From positions 1 through 57,269 of the forward strand of contig CAUEUQ010000001.1 of assembly GCA_959021215.1 (NCBI GenBank): a stretch of DNA of 57,269 nt, in the 5' to 3' direction. The position numbers and the translations under genes were made by a program. Positions within the stretch are counted from its first letter, which is position 1, and each line of letters begins with the position of its first letter. Positions 16,820 through 39,947 of this stretch are shown in pieces. The stretch comes from an uncultured Collinsella sp. (lineage in GTDB: Bacteria; Actinomycetota; Coriobacteriia; Coriobacteriales; Coriobacteriaceae). The notes under the pieces were generated by a model that saw only the letters and a program-made list of their open reading frames with translations, was not told the DNA's origin and did no database searches.

Positions 16820-19210
16820 ATGGCAGATTCCAGCAAAAAGATGCAGATCGTGTTTGCCTCGGCCGAGTGCGCACCGTTTGTTAAGACCGGTGGCCTGGGC
16901 GACGTGGCGGGCTCGCTGCCTGCGGCGCTCGTGCGCGCCGGCGCCGAAGTCATTGTGATGGTGCCCAAGTACGCCACCATCAAGGATGAGTACAAGGCGC
17001 AGATGGAGCACTTTTCCGACTTTTACGTGAGCCTGGGCTGGCGCAACGAGTACTGCGGGCTGGAGAAGCTCGAGCACGACGGCGTCACCTATATGTTCGT
17101 GGACAACGAGCGCTACTTTGCGCGCGATTATCCGTACGGCTTCTTCGACGACGGCGAGCGCTTCGCGTTCTTCTCCAAGGCCATTACCGAGAGCCTGCAG
17201 CACCTGCCCGAGGGCTTTGAGTGCGACATCCTGCACTGTAACGACTGGCAGACGGCACTGGCGCCCGTGTTCTTGCGCGAGTTCTACCAGGGCCTGCCGC
17301 TGTACGACCGCGTCAAGACTGTGTTCTCGATCCACAACGTGGCGTTCCAGGGCCAGTTTAGCGACACCGTGATGGAGGACATCCTGGGAGTGGCGCATAT
17401 TCCCGCGGCCGCCACGCAGTTGCGCTGCGACGCCTGCAGCATCAACTACATGCTGGGCGCGCTGCACTATGCCGACGCCATCACCACGGTGAGCCCCACC
17501 TACGCGAGCGAGATCCAGACGCCCGAGTTTGGCGAGGGCCTGGACGGCGTACTGCGCGAGCGTTCCTACGCGCTGCAGGGCATCCTCAACGGCATTGACG
17601 TGGCGGCCTTTGACCCGGCAACCGACAAGCGCATTGCCGCCAACTACACGGTTGACGACCGTTCCGGCAAGGCCGTGTGCAAGGCCAAGCTGCAGGAGGA
17701 ACTGGGGCTCGAGGTGCGCGACGACCGCCCGCTTATGGTGATGGTCACGCGCCTGACGCGCCAGAAGGGCATGGACCTGGTCATGTACGCGCTCGACCGC
17801 ATCCTGTCCGGCGGCGTTCAGGTGGCCGTGCTGGGCACCGGCGACCGCGACTACGAGGACGGTCTGCGCTACTTCCAGGACAAGTACCCCGGCACCATGG
17901 CCGCGCGCATCGAGTTCGATCCGGCGCTGTCGCAGCGCATGTACGCTGCCGCCGATATGTTCCTGATGCCTTCGAAGTTTGAGCCCTGCGGCCTGTCGCA
18001 GATCATCGCCATGCGCTACGGCACCCTGCCCATCGTGCGCGAGACCGGTGGCCTGAAGGACACCGTGCAGCCGTACAACGAGTTTACCGGCGAGGGCACG
18101 GGCTTCTCGTTTACCAACTTTAACGGCGACGAGATGGGCGACGCGGTGTTCCGCGCAGCACGCCTGTTCTGGGATAACCGTGAGGCATGGAACCAGCTAG
18201 TCACGCAGGCCATGAGCCAGGACTTTAGCTGGACGCGTTCGGCCGACAAGTATCTGGACCTGTACTTCTTTATGCACCCGGAGATTGAGCGCCCGGCGGC
18301 TGTGGAGGCTGCCACGGCCATAGAGGAGCCGGTTGCTGATGAGGCCGAGCCTGCGGCGCCCGTTAAGGAGCCCGCTGCTGAGGAGCCCAAGGTCGAGGAG
18401 AAGCCGGTTGAAGCTAAGCCCGTTAAGGCCGATCCTGAGGTGAAGGTCGAGGCTGCTCCCGAGCCCGAGCCTGAGGTGAAGCCCGCTGCGAAGCCTGCCA
18501 CCAAAAAGACGACGGCTCGCAAGACGACGGCTCGCAAGACGACGGCTAAGAAGGCTACGACCACGAAGGCCGCTGCGAGCAAGACCACCGCTGCCAAGGC
18601 AACTACTGCCAAGGCATCGACCACGCGCAAGCGCACGACCGCCGCTGCCAAGAAGGCCAACGAGGTCGAGGCTGCTCCCGAGGTAAAGGCCGCCGCCGAG
18701 GCTAAGCCTGCGGCAAAGGCTCCGGCCAAGACCGCTGCCAAGAAGACGGCTGCAACCACCAAGAAGGCAACGGCAGCCAAGAAGACCACGGCTACGAAGT
18801 CGACGACGGCCAAGGCCGCTACGACGAAGGCCGCCGCGAAGACGGCCCCGAAGGCTACTGCAAAGCCGGCCGCCAAAGTCGAGGAGACGCCCGCTGAGTC
18901 TAAGGATGAGGCAGCTGTCGAGGCAAAGCCGGCCGCCAAGACCACCACGCGCAAACGCGCCGCGACGACGGCCAAGAAGACCACGACCAAGGCTGCAGCT
19001 CCCAAGGCAGAGGGTAAGGCCGAGGACAAGCCCGCAGTAAAGGCCGAGCCGACTCCGAAGGCTGCCGAGGTTAAGGCCGCTCCCAAGACTAAGGCAAAGA
19101 CCGAGCCCGCCAAGGAGACCCCGGTCTCCCCCGCCGTTTCGGCCGAGGAAAAGGCTCCGACCAAGAAGACCTCCGTCCGCAAGGCAACGGCCGCCCGCAA
19201 GCGCCGCTAA
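16820..19210 (+). CDS. glgA: Glycogen synthase with ~310-aa low-complexity Ala/Lys/Thr/Pro/Glu tail
   Basis: KTGGLGDV, HCNDWQT, PSKFEPCGL, RETGGLKDTV; GT5 core ends near 18280; GGAGA before ATG 16820. Confidence 0.95.
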   Translation: MADSSKKMQIVFASAECAPFVKTGGLGDVAGSLPAALVRAGAEVIVMVPKYATIKDEYKAQMEHFSDFYVSLGWRNEYCGLEKLEHDGVTYMFVDNERYFARDYPYGFFDDGERFAFFSKAITESLQHLPEGFECDILHCNDWQTALAPVFLREFYQGLPLYDRVKTVFSIHNVAFQGQFSDTVMEDILGVAHIPAAATQLRCDACSINYMLGALHYADAITTVSPTYASEIQTPEFGEGLDGVLRERSYALQGILNGIDVAAFDPATDKRIAANYTVDDRSGKAVCKAKLQEELGLEVRDDRPLMVMVTRLTRQKGMDLVMYALDRILSGGVQVAVLGTGDRDYEDGLRYFQDKYPGTMAARIEFDPALSQRMYAAADMFLMPSKFEPCGLSQIIAMRYGTLPIVRETGGLKDTVQPYNEFTGEGTGFSFTNFNGDEMGDAVFRAARLFWDNREAWNQLVTQAMSQDFSWTRSADKYLDLYFFMHPEIERPAAVEAATAIEEPVADEAEPAAPVKEPAAEEPKVEEKPVEAKPVKADPEVKVEAAPEPEPEVKPAAKPATKKTTARKTTARKTTAKKATTTKAAASKTTAAKATTAKASTTRKRTTAAAKKANEVEAAPEVKAAAEAKPAAKAPAKTAAKKTAATTKKATAAKKTTATKSTTAKAATTKAAAKTAPKATAKPAAKVEETPAESKDEAAVEAKPAAKTTTRKRAATTAKKTTTKAAAPKAEGKAEDKPAVKAEPTPKAAEVKAAPKTKAKTEPAKETPVSPAVSAEEKAPTKKTSVRKATAARKRR
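18506..18547 (+). repeat. 15-bp tandem repeat (KTTAR) in glgA tail
   Basis: AAGACGACGGCTCGC x2 plus AAGACGACGGCT. Confidence 0.9.
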
Positions 19211-19233
19211 TCCGGACGATTAAAACTAAATCC

Positions 19234-19280
19234 TCAACGCAAAAGAGGGCGCCCCAACCAGGCGCCCTCTTTTGCGTTGA
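19234..19280. terminator. Bidirectional intrinsic terminator after glgA
   Basis: 20-bp perfect IR TCAACGCAAAAGAGGGCGCC / GGCGCCCTCTTTTGCGTTGA. Confidence 0.85.
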
Positions 19281-19291
19281 ACTTCGCATTA

Positions 19292-19443
19292 AAAAGAGGG
19301 CCGGTTTACTACGACAAAATGGCTCCGGCCGACCACGGCGAGTAATCTTCGAAATTAAGAACGCTTCTAGCTGCGGTTTTAATATCACCAAAATGACTGT
19401 TGTTGAGATCATTCAATTCGTCGTAGTAAACCGAAGTACTTTT
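19292..19443. repeat. 152-bp palindromic intergenic element, copy E1
   Basis: AAAA-N6-CGGTTTACTACGAC ... GTCGTAGTAAACCG-N6-TTTT; homologous to 23410-23561. Confidence 0.75.
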
Positions 19444-19640
19444 GTTTGGATACAAATAGTATCGGTATAGACGTTTTTAAATATCGCGATAATTTGGGTG
19501 GTAAAACGATTTTCTAGGACAACCGTTCGCCGATGGTAAACGGATGTTGTTTATACAGCCTGTGTGCAACATATATACTTATATCCTGTGCGTAAAGCCC
19601 ATGGCCCGCAGGCCGTGATTCTATTGAACTGGACCGAATT

Positions 19641-22600
19641 ATGAGATTGATTCACAACAGCCGTCTGCCGCAGTTTCGCACTCCGTTTGGCGCTGTGACC
19701 ACTGGAACTTCCGTTTCGCTCTCGGTGATTTTGGAGGATGCCGACCCCAACCAGGCAACGCTTACGCTGCGCACCTGGGTCGATGAGATCGGTGAGTCTC
19801 TGTATCCCATGACGCACGAGGGCGACGGCATATTTACCGTAGAGCTTGAGTGCGCCGAGCCCTGTCTTATCTGGTACAGCTTTATCTGCAACATCGAGGG
19901 CCAGCCCGAGGTCCGTCTGGGCGCACCGCAGGGTCGCACCGGTGGCGAGGGCGTAACTTACAACTACGCCGAGGTCCCGTCCTTCCAGATCACCGTCTAC
20001 AAGCACCGCGAAGTTCGTCCCGAGTGGTACGAGCGTGGCATGGTCTACCAGATCTTCCCCGACCGATATGCCCGCGACGAAAACTGGCACGAGCGTACGC
20101 TTGCCGAAGTTGAAAAACCGCGCAAAGGAATCCAGCGCCGCATGGTCGAGGACTGGAACGAACCGCCCGAGTACGAGCGTGCCGAAGACGGCTCCATCAA
20201 GACCTGGGATTTTTACGGCGGCTCGCTCAAGGGTATCCAAAATGACCTGCCCCGCATTGCCGAGCTAGGCTTTACGGCCATCTACCTCAACCCAATCTTT
20301 GAGGCCGCGAGTAACCACCGCTACGACACGGCCGACTACACCAAGATCGACCCGATCCTGGGCACCGAGCAGGACTTTACCGAGCTGTGCCAGGCAGCCG
20401 AGAAGCTGGGCATCTCCATCATCCTGGACGGCGTCTTCAACCACACGGGCGACGATTCGATCTATTTCAACCGCTACGGCAACTATCCCGGCGTGGGCGC
20501 TTGGCAGAGCGAGGATTCACCGTGGCGCGATGCGTTTTACTTCCATGAGGACGGTTCGTATGACTGCTGGTGGGGCGTGGGCAACATGCCCGCCATCAAT
20601 GAGAGCTCCGAACTGGTGCGCGAGCGGCTCCTGGGCAAGGACGGCGTGATCCGTAAATGGCTGCGCGCCGGTGCCCATGGCTGGCGACTCGATGTGGCCG
20701 ACGAGCTTTCCGACGACTTCCTGGCCGAGATCAAAAAGGCCGTGCTCGCCGAGAAGCCCGACGCGCTGCTGCTCGGCGAAGTCTGGGAAGACGCCTCCAA
20801 CAAGATCAGCTATGGCCACCTGCGTCGCTATCTGCAGGGCTCGGAGCTCGACTCCGCCATGGACTACCCCTTCCGCGACATGGTCATCGGCTTTTTGATG
20901 GGCTACAAGAACGCCTACCAGGCAGCCGAGGATATCGAAACCCTGCGCGAGAACTACCCACGCGAGGCACTGGCCTGCGCGCTCAATCTGCTTTCGAGCC
21001 ACGACCGCCCGCGCATCATCTCGGTGCTCGGCGGTGGCCCCGACGAGTCGCAGCTGCCCGAGAGCGAGCGCAGCAAATGGCGCCTGGACGATAACTCGAT
21101 GGGCCTGGCCAAGAGCCGTTTTTGGCTGGCGACGCTCATGCAGATGACCTTCCCGGGTGTGCCCTCGATCTATTATGGCGACGAGTACGGCCTGGAGGGC
21201 CTCACCGATCCGGGCAACCGCCGCACCCTGCCGACCAAAGACCAACTCCACGACTTCGACACACTGGCCATCGTTAAGAACGCGTCTGCCGTGCGCCGTG
21301 CGCTGCCCTTTATGGTCGATGGCGAGATCAAGGCCTTTGCGCTCAACGACGAAGTCTTGGCTTACACCCGCACGGGCAATGACGGCGAAGCCGCGACGGT
21401 TATCATCAACCGCAGCCTGCGCAATTCGCACCGCGTGACGATTCCGGCGCTCGGCGAATGCGCGAGCGACGTGATCAGCGGTCACGAGTGCGAGATCCAC
21501 AACGGTACCGTCACGCTCGACCTGTACCCGCTGGGCTCTTCGATTATCTATCACCATGCCGAGAAGCGCCTGCAGGAGCCGCTCGATCATGGCGCGGGCG
21601 TTGTGTGCCACATCACCTCGGTGCCGACCGATGACGGCAAGCCCGGCACAATCGGTGCGCCCACGCGTCGCTTTATCGACCATCTGGCCGCTATGGGCAT
21701 GCGCTACTGGCAAGTCCTGCCCGTCAACCCCACGGACTTCTTCCGCTCCCCCTACGCCGGCCCCTCGGCCTTTGCAGGCAATATCGACCTGCTGCCTGAG
21801 AGCCACGAGGAACTTGCGGACGACTTTGAGGCTTGGAAGGCCCGTGGCGGCGAAGATGCAGACCCGCTCTACACGGCGTTTAAGCATCGCAACGCCGATT
21901 GGCTCGAGAAGTACTGCGTCTACATGGCCGTTAAGAAGTACTTTGAGGGCGAATCGCGTCACGATTGGCCGGCAGATGTCGCGCGCTACAACGAGCACCT
22001 GATCGATGACAAGCGTTTCCACGACGAGGCTGAACTGCAGGCGTACATGCAGTATCGCTTTGACCTGGCCTGGTGCGAGCTCATGAACTATGCGCACAAG
22101 AAGGGCATCGAGGTCATCGGCGACATTCCCATGTATGTTTCGGACGATTCGACAGACGCATGGAGCGAGCCCGAGAACTTCTGGCTGTCCGATACCGGCA
22201 AGGCGATTGAGGTTTCCGGCGCGCCGCCCGATAATTTTGCGCCCGAGGGTCAGGTGTGGGGCAACCCCACCTTCCGTTGGGATCACATGAAGGAGAACGG
22301 CTATCGCTGGTGGATGGACCGCCTGCGTCGCGCGTTCTCGCTCTACGACCGCGTGCGCCTGGACCACTTCCTGGGATTCCACAGCTACTTTAGCATTCCC
22401 GCAGGCAAGGCCTGCGCCGACGGTCGCTGGCTGGCGGGACCGGGCAAGGATCTGTTCCAGACTGCCTATGACGAGCTGGGGCCGCTCAACTTTATCGCCG
22501 AGGACCTGGGCTACCTGACGCCCGGCGTTCGCGCCATGGCTTCGACCTGCGGCTTCCCCGGTATGGACGTGCTGGAGTTTAGCGATTACGACGTCCGAAA

Positions 22601-22937
22601 CGGCGTGTATCCCACGCCGGGCAAGATTCTGTACACCTCGACGCACGACACGTCGACGCTCGCCGGTTGGTGCACGCGCTCCTTTGCGGGCGGCGACGAG
22701 CCGAGCGGCAAGGAGTTGGCCGGCAAACTGATGGGCGACGCGCTCGCAAGCGACGCTCCCCTGGTGATGATGCCGCTGCAGGACATCCTGGGGCTAGGCG
22801 ACGATGCACGCATGAACGTGCCGGGCGTGGCAACGGGCAACTGGACCTGGAAGGCCGATGAGGCCGACGTTGCGGCCGCCGAGGGCAAAACTGCACAGCT
22901 CCTGCGCAGCACCCATAGATTCTGGGGCGAAGCGTGA
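19641..22937 (+). CDS. malQ: GH13 amylopullulanase/neopullulanase fused to GH77 4-alpha-glucanotransferase
   Basis: YQIFPDR, LDGVFNH, GWRLDVA, GEVWED, SSHD (GH13); WQVLP, GDIPMYV, RLDHF, IAEDLG, THD, RMNVPG..GNW (GH77). Confidence 0.9.
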   Translation: MRLIHNSRLPQFRTPFGAVTTGTSVSLSVILEDADPNQATLTLRTWVDEIGESLYPMTHEGDGIFTVELECAEPCLIWYSFICNIEGQPEVRLGAPQGRTGGEGVTYNYAEVPSFQITVYKHREVRPEWYERGMVYQIFPDRYARDENWHERTLAEVEKPRKGIQRRMVEDWNEPPEYERAEDGSIKTWDFYGGSLKGIQNDLPRIAELGFTAIYLNPIFEAASNHRYDTADYTKIDPILGTEQDFTELCQAAEKLGISIILDGVFNHTGDDSIYFNRYGNYPGVGAWQSEDSPWRDAFYFHEDGSYDCWWGVGNMPAINESSELVRERLLGKDGVIRKWLRAGAHGWRLDVADELSDDFLAEIKKAVLAEKPDALLLGEVWEDASNKISYGHLRRYLQGSELDSAMDYPFRDMVIGFLMGYKNAYQAAEDIETLRENYPREALACALNLLSSHDRPRIISVLGGGPDESQLPESERSKWRLDDNSMGLAKSRFWLATLMQMTFPGVPSIYYGDEYGLEGLTDPGNRRTLPTKDQLHDFDTLAIVKNASAVRRALPFMVDGEIKAFALNDEVLAYTRTGNDGEAATVIINRSLRNSHRVTIPALGECASDVISGHECEIHNGTVTLDLYPLGSSIIYHHAEKRLQEPLDHGAGVVCHITSVPTDDGKPGTIGAPTRRFIDHLAAMGMRYWQVLPVNPTDFFRSPYAGPSAFAGNIDLLPESHEELADDFEAWKARGGEDADPLYTAFKHRNADWLEKYCVYMAVKKYFEGESRHDWPADVARYNEHLIDDKRFHDEAELQAYMQYRFDLAWCELMNYAHKKGIEVIGDIPMYVSDDSTDAWSEPENFWLSDTGKAIEVSGAPPDNFAPEGQVWGNPTFRWDHMKENGYRWWMDRLRRAFSLYDRVRLDHFLGFHSYFSIPAGKACADGRWLAGPGKDLFQTAYDELGPLNFIAEDLGYLTPGVRAMASTCGFPGMDVLEFSDYDVRNGVYPTPGKILYTSTHDTSTLAGWCTRSFAGGDEPSGKELAGKLMGDALASDAPLVMMPLQDILGLGDDARMNVPGVATGNWTWKADEADVAAAEGKTAQLLRSTHRFWGEA

Positions 22938-23025
22938 TAAAACCCCCGATATAGGGTACAGTTACAGCAGTTTGAATTTATGCGGGCAGAGCGATCTGCC
23001 CGCTTTGTGCTGAAAAGGAAGTATT

Positions 23026-23262
23026 ATGGCGCGCTACGATTACAAGTGCTCGAGCTGCGGCAACGTGTTTGAGGTTGAGCATCCCATGTCCGAGACCCCC
23101 GAGGTCGTGTGCCCGAGCTGCGGCGCTCCGGCCTCCAAGACGTTCTCGGCCAGCGGCATCAAGTTTGAGGGCAGCGGTTTCTACAACACCGACCAGCGCA
23201 GCGGTGGTTCCAGCACCAACGCCACAAGCGGCTGCTGCGCCAACTGCCCACATAACCACTAA
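23026..23262 (+). CDS. FmdB-family zinc-ribbon protein
   Basis: YDYKCSSCG..FE, CPSCG, FEGSGFY.TD; AAAGGA RBS. Confidence 0.88.
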   Translation: MARYDYKCSSCGNVFEVEHPMSETPEVVCPSCGAPASKTFSASGIKFEGSGFYNTDQRSGGSSTNATSGCCANCPHNH

Positions 23263-23296
23263 AGACAAACGGTCCCGCCACCCAGGTTTCCTTATG

Positions 23297-23363
23297 AGTT
23301 GCGGTGAAATAGTTCCTGAATCAGCCCATCCAACGGCCAAACAGGAACCATTTCACCGCAACT
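23297..23363. repeat. 67-bp palindromic element, copy 1
   Basis: AGTTGCGGTGAAAT...ATTTCACCGCAACT; 22-bp arms with one mismatch. Confidence 0.85.
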
Positions 23364-23409
23364 TTTCTTTAGATCGGATTTCAGGCTGATGCTAAGTTTG
23401 TAACATTTC

Positions 23410-23561
23410 AAAACTCTGCCGGATTACGGGGCTGAATTGACAGCCTCTATCCATTCCGGTAATTTGCAAATTTCAACAAGCCATCTACCTGCGGTTTTAT
23501 TTAGACCATTTTTGATGTGGTCGGGCATCACCAATCTAGCCCCGTAATCCGCCCTACTTTT
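23410..23561. repeat. 152-bp palindromic intergenic element, copy E2
   Basis: AAAA-N6-CGGATTACGGGGCT ... AGCCCCGTAATCCG-N6-TTTT; same length and internal motif offset as E1. Confidence 0.75.
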
Positions 23562-23637
23562 GATAACAGCAAGTTTGAGACAGGGCTATCCTTCCATTCT
23601 TTACCGCTATTGCGATCTCCACTCGCACGACCTTCTG

Positions 23638-23704
23638 AGTTGCGGTGAAATAAGGACTATTTGGCGGGTAGATGCCGCTATTCAATCCCTATTTCACCGC
23701 AACT
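23638..23704. repeat. 67-bp palindromic element, copy 2
   Basis: AGTTGCGGTGAAATA...TATTTCACCGCAACT. Confidence 0.85.
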
Positions 23705-23710
23705 TAGTAG

Positions 23711-25111
23711 TTACTTGTGGACCAGGCGGGCGCAGAAGTGACCGTCGTAGGAGTCGGCGTTTACGGGGACACTTTGGAAGAGGCCTCGAGGGTTTTGGCG
23801 GAGAGTGACGAGGCTCTTGGCGTGGTCGTACTCGGGGAGCTGCAGAATCTGGGCTTCGGAGAGCGGTGCCACGATAAAGCCGGCGCCCTCGGAAGAGGCC
23901 AGGAAGGCATCCACGACCTGCGTGTTCTCTTCATCAAAAACCGAGCAGGTGGCATAGATAAGCTCACCGCCGGCAGCAACGCGCGCGGCTGCTTCCTTGA
24001 GCATCGTCAGCTGTAGCTTGGGCAGCTCAGTCGTAACGTCGTTCTCGGTCAGACGCCACGGTATCTCGGGATGACGGCGCATGGTGCCGGTGCCAGAGCA
24101 CGGCGCATCGATAAACACCGTGTCGAACAGGGCGGGCTCGCCGAGCATCGCGTCAAAGGACGTGAGCACCTCATTGAGCTCGCAGGCATCGCCCGACACC
24201 GTACGAACACCTGTTATACCCGCCTTATGCAGGCGTGCGAGATTCTGATCGCACTTGCGATCGTGCAGATCGAGCGCGGTATGCTGACGCTCGTACCCGG
24301 CACGCTTGGCCTGGCACATCATCACATAGGTCTTGGTGCCGCGACCGGCTCCAATCTCCAGGCAACGACCGGGACGTGTAGCGGCAGTAGCGATAAGCTG
24401 AGCGTTGAGGTCCGAGGCAACCGCGGCAGCACGCTCAAACACGCCCGATGCAACCGTGACCTGCGCATCGACCGGAGCATGGCAGCCCGGGAAGACAGGT
24501 GCGACGAGCTGCGAGATATACGGGTCGGCCTTGGTCGCAAACGCATTCTCGTGCAGTGCAAGCGGCGCGGGGGCCAGATTACCGGCAAAGTTGAGCGCGC
24601 CCTCGGGCGTATCGAACGAGGCCATAATACGAGCGCACAGCCAACGCGGCAGTCCCATCAGGCGCGACAGACGAACCAAGCGTCGCTCAGACTCATCCAC
24701 ATCGGACGCAGTAGCAAAGTCCTCAACATTGTCCGCAACCTTATGCAGCACAGCATTGGCCAAACCGGCGGCAGACTTAGCTCCGCTGCGCACCAGCTCA
24801 ACACCCTGACTTACGGCAACGCGACCAGGCGTATGCAGGTAAAGCATCTCGAAGGCCGAGATGCGAAGCGCCATGCGAACGCGCGGCGCGACCTTTTTGG
24901 GCTTATCCAAAAACTGATCGAGCAACTCATCCAAAATACCCTGCGTGGCGGCAACACCGAGCGCCAAACGAGCGGCAAAAGCGGAATCGCGCTGGTCAAT
25001 GGACTTGGCGGAAGCGCGGGACGAGAGCACGTCGCGCGCATACATACCGCGGCGATCGGCCTCCATCAACACATCGAGCGCAAGCTTGCGCGCGGGAGAA
25101 AGCTTGCTCAT
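23711..25111 (-). CDS. rsmB: 16S rRNA m5C methyltransferase (NusB-like + RsmB/Sun)
   Basis: N-terminal NusB-like helices, GAGRGTKT, DAPCSGTG, YATCS; ATGA overlap with fmt. Confidence 0.85.
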   Translation of the reverse strand: MSKLSPARKLALDVLMEADRRGMYARDVLSSRASAKSIDQRDSAFAARLALGVAATQGILDELLDQFLDKPKKVAPRVRMALRISAFEMLYLHTPGRVAVSQGVELVRSGAKSAAGLANAVLHKVADNVEDFATASDVDESERRLVRLSRLMGLPRWLCARIMASFDTPEGALNFAGNLAPAPLALHENAFATKADPYISQLVAPVFPGCHAPVDAQVTVASGVFERAAAVASDLNAQLIATAATRPGRCLEIGAGRGTKTYVMMCQAKRAGYERQHTALDLHDRKCDQNLARLHKAGITGVRTVSGDACELNEVLTSFDAMLGEPALFDTVFIDAPCSGTGTMRRHPEIPWRLTENDVTTELPKLQLTMLKEAAARVAAGGELIYATCSVFDEENTQVVDAFLASSEGAGFIVAPLSEAQILQLPEYDHAKSLVTLRQNPRGLFQSVPVNADSYDGHFCARLVHK

Positions 25112-39880: not shown

Positions 39881-39947
39881 AGTTGCGGTGAATTAGGGAC
39901 TGAATACGCTATCTAGCAGCAAAAACAGACACTATTTCACCGCAACT
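39881..39947. repeat. 67-bp palindromic element, copy 3
   Basis: AGTTGCGGTGAATT...ATTTCACCGCAACT; interior aligns with reverse complement of copy 2. Confidence 0.85.

Follow-up and report, generated by a model that had tools for sequence, protein, structure and literature searches.

What are E1 (19292-19443) and E2 (23410-23561), two palindromic segments in a 57,269-nt stretch of DNA from an uncultured Collinsella sp. (the window, by which we mean the whole stretch that was analysed)? The window carries glycogen, cell-envelope, cobalamin and other housekeeping genes, and the gene between the two segments (19641-22937) has a 1098-aa product in which an alpha-amylase catalytic domain is fused to a 4-alpha-glucanotransferase (GH77) domain. 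A preliminary description had proposed that structure and spacing are maintained in E1 and E2 rather than sequence, and had offered three readings: a structured non-coding RNA, an attC-like recombination site or a non-autonomous element. Its basic observations were confirmed, as both segments are 152 bp long, each ends in a 14-bp perfect inverted repeat (CGGTTTACTACGAC/GTCGTAGTAAACCG in E1, CGGATTACGGGGCT/AGCCCCGTAATCCG in E2), and the interior motif CTGCGGTTTT lies 69 nt past the CGG in both. With moderate confidence, we interpret E1 and E2 as members of a Collinsella-wide family of non-coding intergenic palindromic repeats of the REP/BIME, REPIN, ERIC and Correia/MITE kind, with an IS110 target at the centre; the Collinsella palindromes are probably not a new RNA but a new case of an already known type of repeat. 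Of these three readings, the best fit is the non-autonomous element, since both segments are insertion polymorphisms. The centre of the core is indeed a site-specific recombination target, but that of an IS110-family insertion sequence, which none of the earlier readings had included.

An exact-spacing search for CGGWTTAC-N116-GTAAWCCG found four copies in this 2.01-Mb genome (G000), each spanning 132 bp, with two on contig C1 and one each on C7 and C38. The same pattern was present in 21 of 41 genomes, i.e., in G000 and 20 of 24 congeners but in 0 of 16 genomes from other genera of the order, and the reversed pattern gave no hits in these 41 genomes. Congeners held 2-9 exact-pattern copies per genome, and a 14-mer search found up to ~20 core sites per genome. 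Profile searching of G000 (nhmmer) recovered six intact copies, four left halves and five right halves; all of the half copies lay at contig ends and all were cut at the core. With one genome taken per species, at least 123 loci were found, and every named record among the matches listed was Collinsella, while four were titled 'uncultured bacterium'.

All of 75 distinct copies could be aligned without gaps and with a constant core offset, although they fall into 17 sequence clusters that are only ~50-65% alike. The spacers are therefore saturated with substitutions, yet tolerate no indel. These gapless copies, in which arm complementarity was kept while arm sequence changed, bear out the proposal that structure and spacing are maintained over sequence. 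Spacers that are saturated but free of indels, together with a core of 15 invariant nt, suggest a host function that a REP/BIME/ERIC-like explanation would not cover. In all clusters but one, copies sat past the 3' end of at least one gene, a preference that is approximate because the genes were called by a GC3 heuristic that missed at least one known gene. By the same calls, five clusters sat between convergent genes, and both orientations relative to adjacent genes were found. We also considered a replication-strand bias and rejected it, since nine copies in the near-complete, two-contig genome G021 (dnaA at 1.77 Mb) showed no consistent strand with respect to the replichores. At one locus of G021 (L027, 3250-3385, G021:C1), three tandem elements of three arm classes lie between the genes for a ferredoxin-like protein and a LuxR-type regulator, and the number and type of elements at this locus differ among genomes.

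Table 1. Coordinates of E1, E2, their parts and the inserted units, numbered along the window.
Feature	Position	Strand	Description
E1	19302..19433	+	132-bp palindromic element, core on + strand; exact-spacing pattern, gapless alignment with 74 others, nhmmer 93.4 bits
E1 outer left arm	19302..19319	.	TACGA class; pairs with 19416-19433
E1 inner left arm CGACCAC	19330..19336	.	partner 19399-19405 is GTTGTTG here, GTGGTTG in orthologues
E1 core CTAGCTGCGGTTTT	19367..19380	+	family consensus CTACCTGCGGTTTT; predicted IS110 insertion point between 19374 and 19375
E1 outer right arm	19416..19433	.	arm-pairing analysis
E1 inserted unit, ~212 bp	19278..19489	+	E1 with ~24 nt on the left and ~56 nt on the right; outer inverted ends TTCGCATTAAAAAG / CGTTTTTAAATATCGCGA
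E2	23420..23551	+	132-bp palindromic element, GGGGC arm class, core on + strand; pattern, alignment, nhmmer 128.3 bits
E2 outer left arm	23420..23437	.	arm-pairing analysis
E2 inner left arm TATCCAT	23448..23454	.	partner GTGGTCG at 23517-23523
E2 core CTACCTGCGGTTTT	23485..23498	+	IS110 insertion point between 23492 and 23493
E2 outer right arm	23534..23551	.	arm-pairing analysis
E2 inserted unit, 341 bp	23296..23636	+	one H hairpin, flank module, E2 and right flank; minority of genomes

With the core on the top strand, the 75-copy alignment (features of E1 and E2 in Table 1) reads CGGWTTAC at positions 1-8, TACGA or GGGGC at 9-13 and roughly TGAAT at 14-18, where a free spacer begins. An inner arm, C(G/A)(A/T)CCA(C/T), occupies positions 29-35 and is followed by a T-run and then an A-run; GCAAG stands at 57-61, and the asymmetric, nearly invariant TCTACCTGCGGTTTT at 64-79, after which the inner and outer arms return in mirror image. 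The plan of the module is outer arm, spacer, 7-bp inner arm, T/A-rich stretch, the asymmetric core GCAAGnnnTCTACCTGCGGTTTTR and the mirror image. E1 of G000 has a private core mutation, CTAGCTGC instead of CTACCTGC, and private changes in its right inner arm. The 152 bp given earlier is correct as a length of E1 and E2 but falls short of the unit, because the palindrome runs outward through CAAAACTATGC, in many copies also through TGCCATTTC, and the whole unit with flanks measures ~170-220 bp.

The pairing of the arms was maintained through sequence change. Positions 9-13, which occur in two main sequence classes, were Watson-Crick paired in 65-74 of the 75 copies, and a second sample showed identical arm classes in 105 of 127 copies. 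Both the outer arms and the 7-bp inner arm pair stayed complementary through double changes. When 36 proposed pairs were scored in 22 representatives, 85.6% of cells held standard pairs, compared to 29-40.5% with slid partners, and the observed covariation score was reached by none of 500 shuffles. Further copies with compensatory changes, on which the preliminary description had staked its inference, thus exist: 22 of the 36 pairs had changed on both sides. One detail did not survive, as the T/A versus A/T exchange at position 4, described as covarying, was complementary in only 61/75 and 104/127 copies, the others having T.T or A.A. Folding as single-stranded DNA gave z = -3.54 for E1 and z = -2.39 for E2, and only the terminal stem was robust. 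A hybrid copy in G010 (L012), which joins non-complementary arm classes, shows that pairing is no absolute requirement. At least five arm classes surround one common interior. Because these arm sequences are unrelated, arm complementarity would be kept for fold-back into a hairpin or cruciform, and not for a protein that reads one arm sequence.

Empty-site alleles, which had been proposed as a check, were found for E1 (11 of 11 loci examined) and for E2 (4 of 4). Of 61 congeneric genomes, 17 gave a one-piece match to the spacer between glgA and malQ, the amylase-MalQ gene, that holds E1, and most of the others a match in two pieces. Two-piece BLAST matches showed that the E1 unit is present in E1-filled genomes and missing from empty-site genomes, where ~9 nt replace the ~212-bp unit (L090-L100); no target-site duplication was legible at the junctions of these 11 empty loci. 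A promoter-like site of malQ, at 19550-19579, lies outside the inserted unit. Identity between E1-filled and empty genomes was 73-85% on the left (glgA 3' end, 18700-19268) and 87-99% on the right (19499-20100), a difference which suggests that E1 marks a recombination boundary. In the spacer matches themselves, identity was 75-80% left of E1 and 91-99% right of it, so that homologous exchange may have brought in E1 along with the divergent glgA 3' end.

The E2 locus gave a one-piece match in 7 of 61 genomes, and most of the others were without the 341-bp unit, with matches in two pieces (query 2-683 and 1032-1501). The boundary of this unit is ambiguous within a 16-bp repeat, GAGTTGCGGTGAAATA (23296-23311 and 23637-23652), which belongs to the resident H hairpin, and no target-site duplication was readable in the four empty alleles. 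The H hairpin is itself a second repeat family (GAGTTGCGGTGAAAT ... ATTTCACCGCAACT, ~68 bp), with copies at 23296-23363 and 23637-23704 and a third right arm at 39934-39947. It is present once at the E2 locus in E2-less genomes, and another copy stands ahead of the C95 paralogue of the elements; in a related isolate, DNA contigs are broken within this hairpin. E2 occurs without E1, e.g. in G010 and G060, and the gains of E1 and E2 were independent. At another level of variation, one locus with the same two neighbour genes carries a GGGGC-arm allele, a TACGA-arm allele or the G010 hybrid, whose halves meet at the core. These alleles show that copies exchange sequence with the core as boundary, which may be due to gene conversion or to a recombinase. 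Copies would have reached their present sites by insertion or recombination and then persisted at orthologous sites.

Furthermore, a 1.56-kb insertion sequence was found at the exact junction of CTACCTGC and GGTTTT, always in the same orientation. All four complete insertions in other genomes were 1559-1561 bp long and were followed by GGTTTT and the right half of the element. The insert encodes a 447-aa protein with DEDD_Tnp_IS110 (PF01548, 65.5 bits) and Transposase_20 (PF02371, 59.2 bits) domains, both above cut-offs, and is therefore an IS110-family insertion sequence. A fixed nucleotide position, a single orientation and a product with both PF01548 and PF02371 mark the core as an IS110 target. 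Left junctions were read at 39 sites, six in G000 and 33 spread over 11 other genomes. All 39 ended in (A)CCTGC, the last six bases being ACCTGC in 38-39 of them, and target and donor overlapped by at most 1 nt (C). Palindromes of this superfamily accounted for 36 of the junctions, and three were elsewhere. Eight were in CGGWTTAC-arm elements, including the orthologues of E1 (G012), E2 (G002) and E4 (G010), and the remainder were in the CCATCTACTACGTTT-arm (15), CTAAGTGAGTAG-arm (10), GAAGTATGCGGC-arm (2) and AGAAGTGAACGAG-arm (1) classes.

Individual loci gave the same picture. The paralogue on contig C95 and the G002 orthologue of E2 stop at ...TCTACCTGC and continue with ACTGATAATTGTTCTCGGGGG, the latter junction (L328) reading ...CATCTACCTGC|ACTGATAATTG. 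In G012, the E1 orthologue is split exactly at the core: its contigs break off at query position 675, G012:C134 carries the IS end, and L318 shows the junction. Six of six contig ends in G000 read ...CCTGC|ACTGATAA, and another is the right-hand IS junction. Since the half-elements lie at contig ends and are cut at the core, about half of the G000 family is occupied by the IS, whose presence is the reason why about half of the copies end a contig. The IS end sequence was detected in only 12 of 61 genomes, whereas 55 of 57 Collinsella genomes retain the core, which is therefore conserved for a reason of its own. Conserved, multicopy and harmless, the core is a landing site that the IS may have evolved to use. 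Earlier reports describe the insertion of IS110 elements into REP elements under the guidance of a bridge RNA (PMC11208160; PMC1525189), and a preprint describes how a target-encoded stem-loop can add specificity (bioRxiv 10.64898/2026.03.19.712850). Targeting in Collinsella presumably also uses a bridge RNA, which would be encoded in the 305-nt non-coding left end of the IS. This left end holds ATAGGAGC, which is the right-end terminus, as well as GACCTGC and AAATCCG, short matches seen by eye that resemble the two target halves; no Rfam model hit it.

A second type of palindrome in G000, ~160 bp long with arms CCGTGAAGTGAACG / CGTTCACTTCGCGG, has the same centre, TTTCCTGCGGTTTTG (C2:34270 and 37339, C14:14466 and the end of C5). 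The centre is sometimes present twice, 21 nt apart, and the C5 copy carries the IS110 element.

The 14-mer at the core extends beyond the palindromes and the genus. It also occurred outside palindromes, and was present, mostly once, in 32 of 193 non-Collinsella Coriobacteriia genomes, compared to two control hits. Twelve out-of-genus loci were examined, and in two of them the 14-mer was part of a sigma-factor coding sequence (LYLRFF). At three loci from other Coriobacteriia genera (L285, L286 and L289; g89, g95), CTACCTGCGGTTTT stands 2-3 nt off the 3' end of a tRNA gene, and at three (L280, L282 and L284) it lies within ~100 nt of clusters of the DnaA-box-like TTATCCACA. Genome G173, from another family of the class, has shorter palindromes with arms ACTGAATCCCACCATAC / GTATGGTGGGATTCAGT around the same 14-mer (L292, L293 and L295), and the design is therefore not limited to Collinsella.

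Covarying arms are also what speaks for an element that acts as RNA, either as a long hairpin in 3' UTRs (a weak two-way terminator or decay barrier) or as a stand-alone structured small RNA, the core supplying the 3' half of an apical hairpin and a U-run. Such a central hairpin can be drawn, with AAAAnnGCA(A/G)G, a 7-nt loop and CCTGCGGTTTT; its A60.C70 mismatch (57/75 copies) would be G.U in a bottom-strand RNA, L002 has a perfect 12-bp version, and a tRNA terminator in G000 ends in the look-alike ATCTACCTGCCTTTTT. The location of most copies past genes, and of five clusters between convergent ones, is in keeping with this reading as far as the heuristic gene calls go. However, the hairpin is weak, pairing in 57% of cells at its best register, G.T and A.C mismatches in the arms showed no strand bias (63 versus 90, positions 13-19), and the elements adopt both orientations relative to adjacent genes. 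The Rfam scan that had been proposed did not match the family: at the gathering threshold the whole window yielded only a tRNA, and E-value scans of 19200-19700 and 22900-23750 yielded only sub-threshold hits, nearly all of which fell on neighbouring hairpins (the H hairpin and the terminator of glgA); a few overlapped E1 and scored 13.5-20.6 bits against gathering scores of 40-440. A terminator scan detected no intrinsic-terminator pattern inside E1 or E2. Transcription was assessed in three stranded RNA-seq runs from one study with the same species label, whose reads were mostly 90-95% alike to the window and hence came from another strain; its E1 allele resembles that of G020, and E2 is missing from it (joint 23261-23631), which makes the runs uninformative on E2. 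Sense transcription of glgA ended at its own terminator ahead of E1, and depth in the E1 bin was 1.4-7 sense and 9-16 antisense, compared to 41-49 at the 3' end of glgA and 150-300 across most bins of malQ, in standard libraries of a type that loses small RNAs. No strand-changing joints were seen in these runs or in one DNA contig set. The low E1 depth and the lack of such joints weigh against an abundant RNA or an active switch. With depth this low and interior pairing this sparse, the structured-RNA reading of the preliminary description gained no support, and we regard a role as RNA, perhaps a small or conditional one, as unlikely. A small protein was rejected as well, as no frame was open in all copies (per-frame open counts 0-31 of 75).

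A short segment bounded by inverted repeats might equally be the site of a host site-specific recombinase, working as an inverton, in which the 132-bp segment flips between the arms, or as an attC-like folded single strand for cassette exchange. The alternative GGGGC-arm, TACGA-arm and core-joined hybrid alleles at one locus are consistent with this, as are neighbouring copies ~370 bp apart in G008 and G021 and the variable side of the flank module TGCCATTTCAAAAC, which among 127 copies accompanied the core on the left alone in 53, on the right alone in 25, on each side in 19, and was missing from 30. Against it, 265 within-cluster pairs comprised 157 with the same flank orientation relative to the core, 108 with unrelated flanks and none inverted. 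This result, the lack of a sigma-70-like promoter inside E1 or E2, and the position of E2 and several other copies between convergent genes, where there is nothing to switch, led us to reject the inverton; the strand-changing joints that it should leave are those missing from the RNA-seq runs and the contig set. The linked recombinase genes that the attC-like reading called for were not found, since none of the 38 window ORFs has a recombinase domain. The element ends misfit the attC R-box form, and copies are scattered singly and not in cassette arrays. We consider a host recombinase site very unlikely. As a third alternative, the element might be a DNA module that binds protein in an architectural or regulatory role, in the way of the E. 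coli BIMEs that bind gyrase or IHF; the core, inner arms and outer arms would be spaced sites for a host protein complex. Strict length despite saturated spacers, the invariance of the 15-nt core, the excess of the 14-mer over control hits outside the genus and its presence outside palindromes, the proximity of some of these sites to tRNA 3' ends or DnaA-box clusters, and the tandem CCTG(C/T)GGTTTTG motifs 21 nt apart in the second palindrome family would all be accommodated by such a module. It has no known candidate protein, however, and five unrelated outer-arm sequences argue against sequence-specific binding of the arms; moreover, the two out-of-genus loci inside sigma-factor genes do not suit it, and the presence/absence polymorphism of E1 and E2 means that single copies are dispensable. 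We find this module improbable.

We therefore return to the palindromic repeat family as the interpretation of E1 and E2, in which the copies would act as DNA rather than as abundant RNA, and compare it with known systems. REPs are 20-40 nt long and are found in hundreds of copies, unlike the Collinsella units of 132-220 bp, with 2-9 exact-pattern copies and at most ~20 core sites per genome. ERIC (~127 bp) and Correia/NEMIS elements are long imperfect, MITE-like palindromes; the Collinsella elements share with them the 100-160 bp size class, long terminal inverted repeats, intergenic location, presence or absence among strains and either orientation relative to genes, though kinship in sequence is not expected. 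They differ in having no readable target duplication, an invariant centre with arms of several classes, and paralogues that are far more diverged (~50-65%) yet free of indels. The features of a MITE are present, as the units are small (132-220 bp), non-coding and bounded by paired terminal inverted repeats, but in contrast to typical MITE bursts the family has a low copy number and old paralogues. No parent IS with the same ends was found in G000, where every CAAAACTATGCCGG-like site was an element copy or a chance match within a gene. An attC site is an imperfect palindrome of 57-141 bp with R-boxes of the form GTTRRRY, and some attC sites are targets of IS1111-type relatives of IS110. The imperfect palindrome and the conservation of structure over sequence are common to attC and the Collinsella elements, which are nevertheless scattered among housekeeping genes without an integrase, a cassette array or R-box ends.

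REPINs are hairpin-forming REP doublets moved by a RAYT. The Collinsella elements resemble them in that compensatory changes tie together the evolution of the hairpin halves and the repeat stays in the genome as a resident of low activity, but they flank no RAYT, and both Y1 transposase genes (PF01797) of G000 lie outside all nhmmer hits. A RAYT-linked REP was rejected, since the element profile matches neither Y1 contig and the Y1 gene on C6 is flanked by a different repeat, TTGGGGACAGAC. This gene (G000:C6:26651-29977, L156; ORF 1093-1884, - strand) encodes a 264-aa IS200-like Y1 transposase (PF01797, 31 bits) between 51-nt inverted repeats with two TTGGGGACAGAC motifs each, and resembles a RAYT that has a REP family of its own. 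GGGGAC-loop hairpins like those of the C6 repeats adjoin several elements (e.g. in the flanks of L009, L025 and L028). The closest likeness in kind to an IS110 target is with REP/BIME sequences (targets of IS621, ISPpu9, ISPpu10 and ISPa11), which are likewise multicopy intergenic palindromes, mostly past genes, and which an IS110-family element enters at a fixed position and in one orientation, as described in PMC11208160, PMC1525189 and PMC12288879. The REP/BIME hosts are enterobacteria and pseudomonads (Pseudomonadota), whereas the Collinsella elements are in Actinomycetota.

In searches of full-text literature, no paper came up that connects Collinsella with IS110 targeting, MITEs, REPs or invertons. 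With our results, Collinsella, a genus common in the human gut, gains a well-defined family of repeats, and the IS in these palindromes explains many contig breaks in Collinsella assemblies. The results also advise caution, as covarying terminal stems need not mean RNA. For bridge-RNA recombinases, one 15-nt target centred in long palindromes with at least five arm sequences provides a natural test case, and the set is suited to testing whether target structure gates insertion. A bolder proposal, to which we give little credence, is that palindromes and IS110 form one system, in which the hairpin arms would be a structural gate that admits the bridge-RNA recombinase only to harmless sites, and the recombinase, by exchange between cores, would reshuffle half-elements along with the intervening DNA. 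Such a system would explain the core-joined hybrid allele, the swaps of alleles at one locus and the single invariant 15-nt centre within at least five arm classes. If it were correct, the family would constitute natural landing pads for RNA-guided recombination, maintained by the traffic through them. Finally, one IS110 copy in G012 (L320, G012:C11:16061-16201) was observed at ...CCCTACCTGC, adjoining or within an apparent reverse complement of a tRNA gene (TGGTGCCCCCGGGCGGATTCGAACC).
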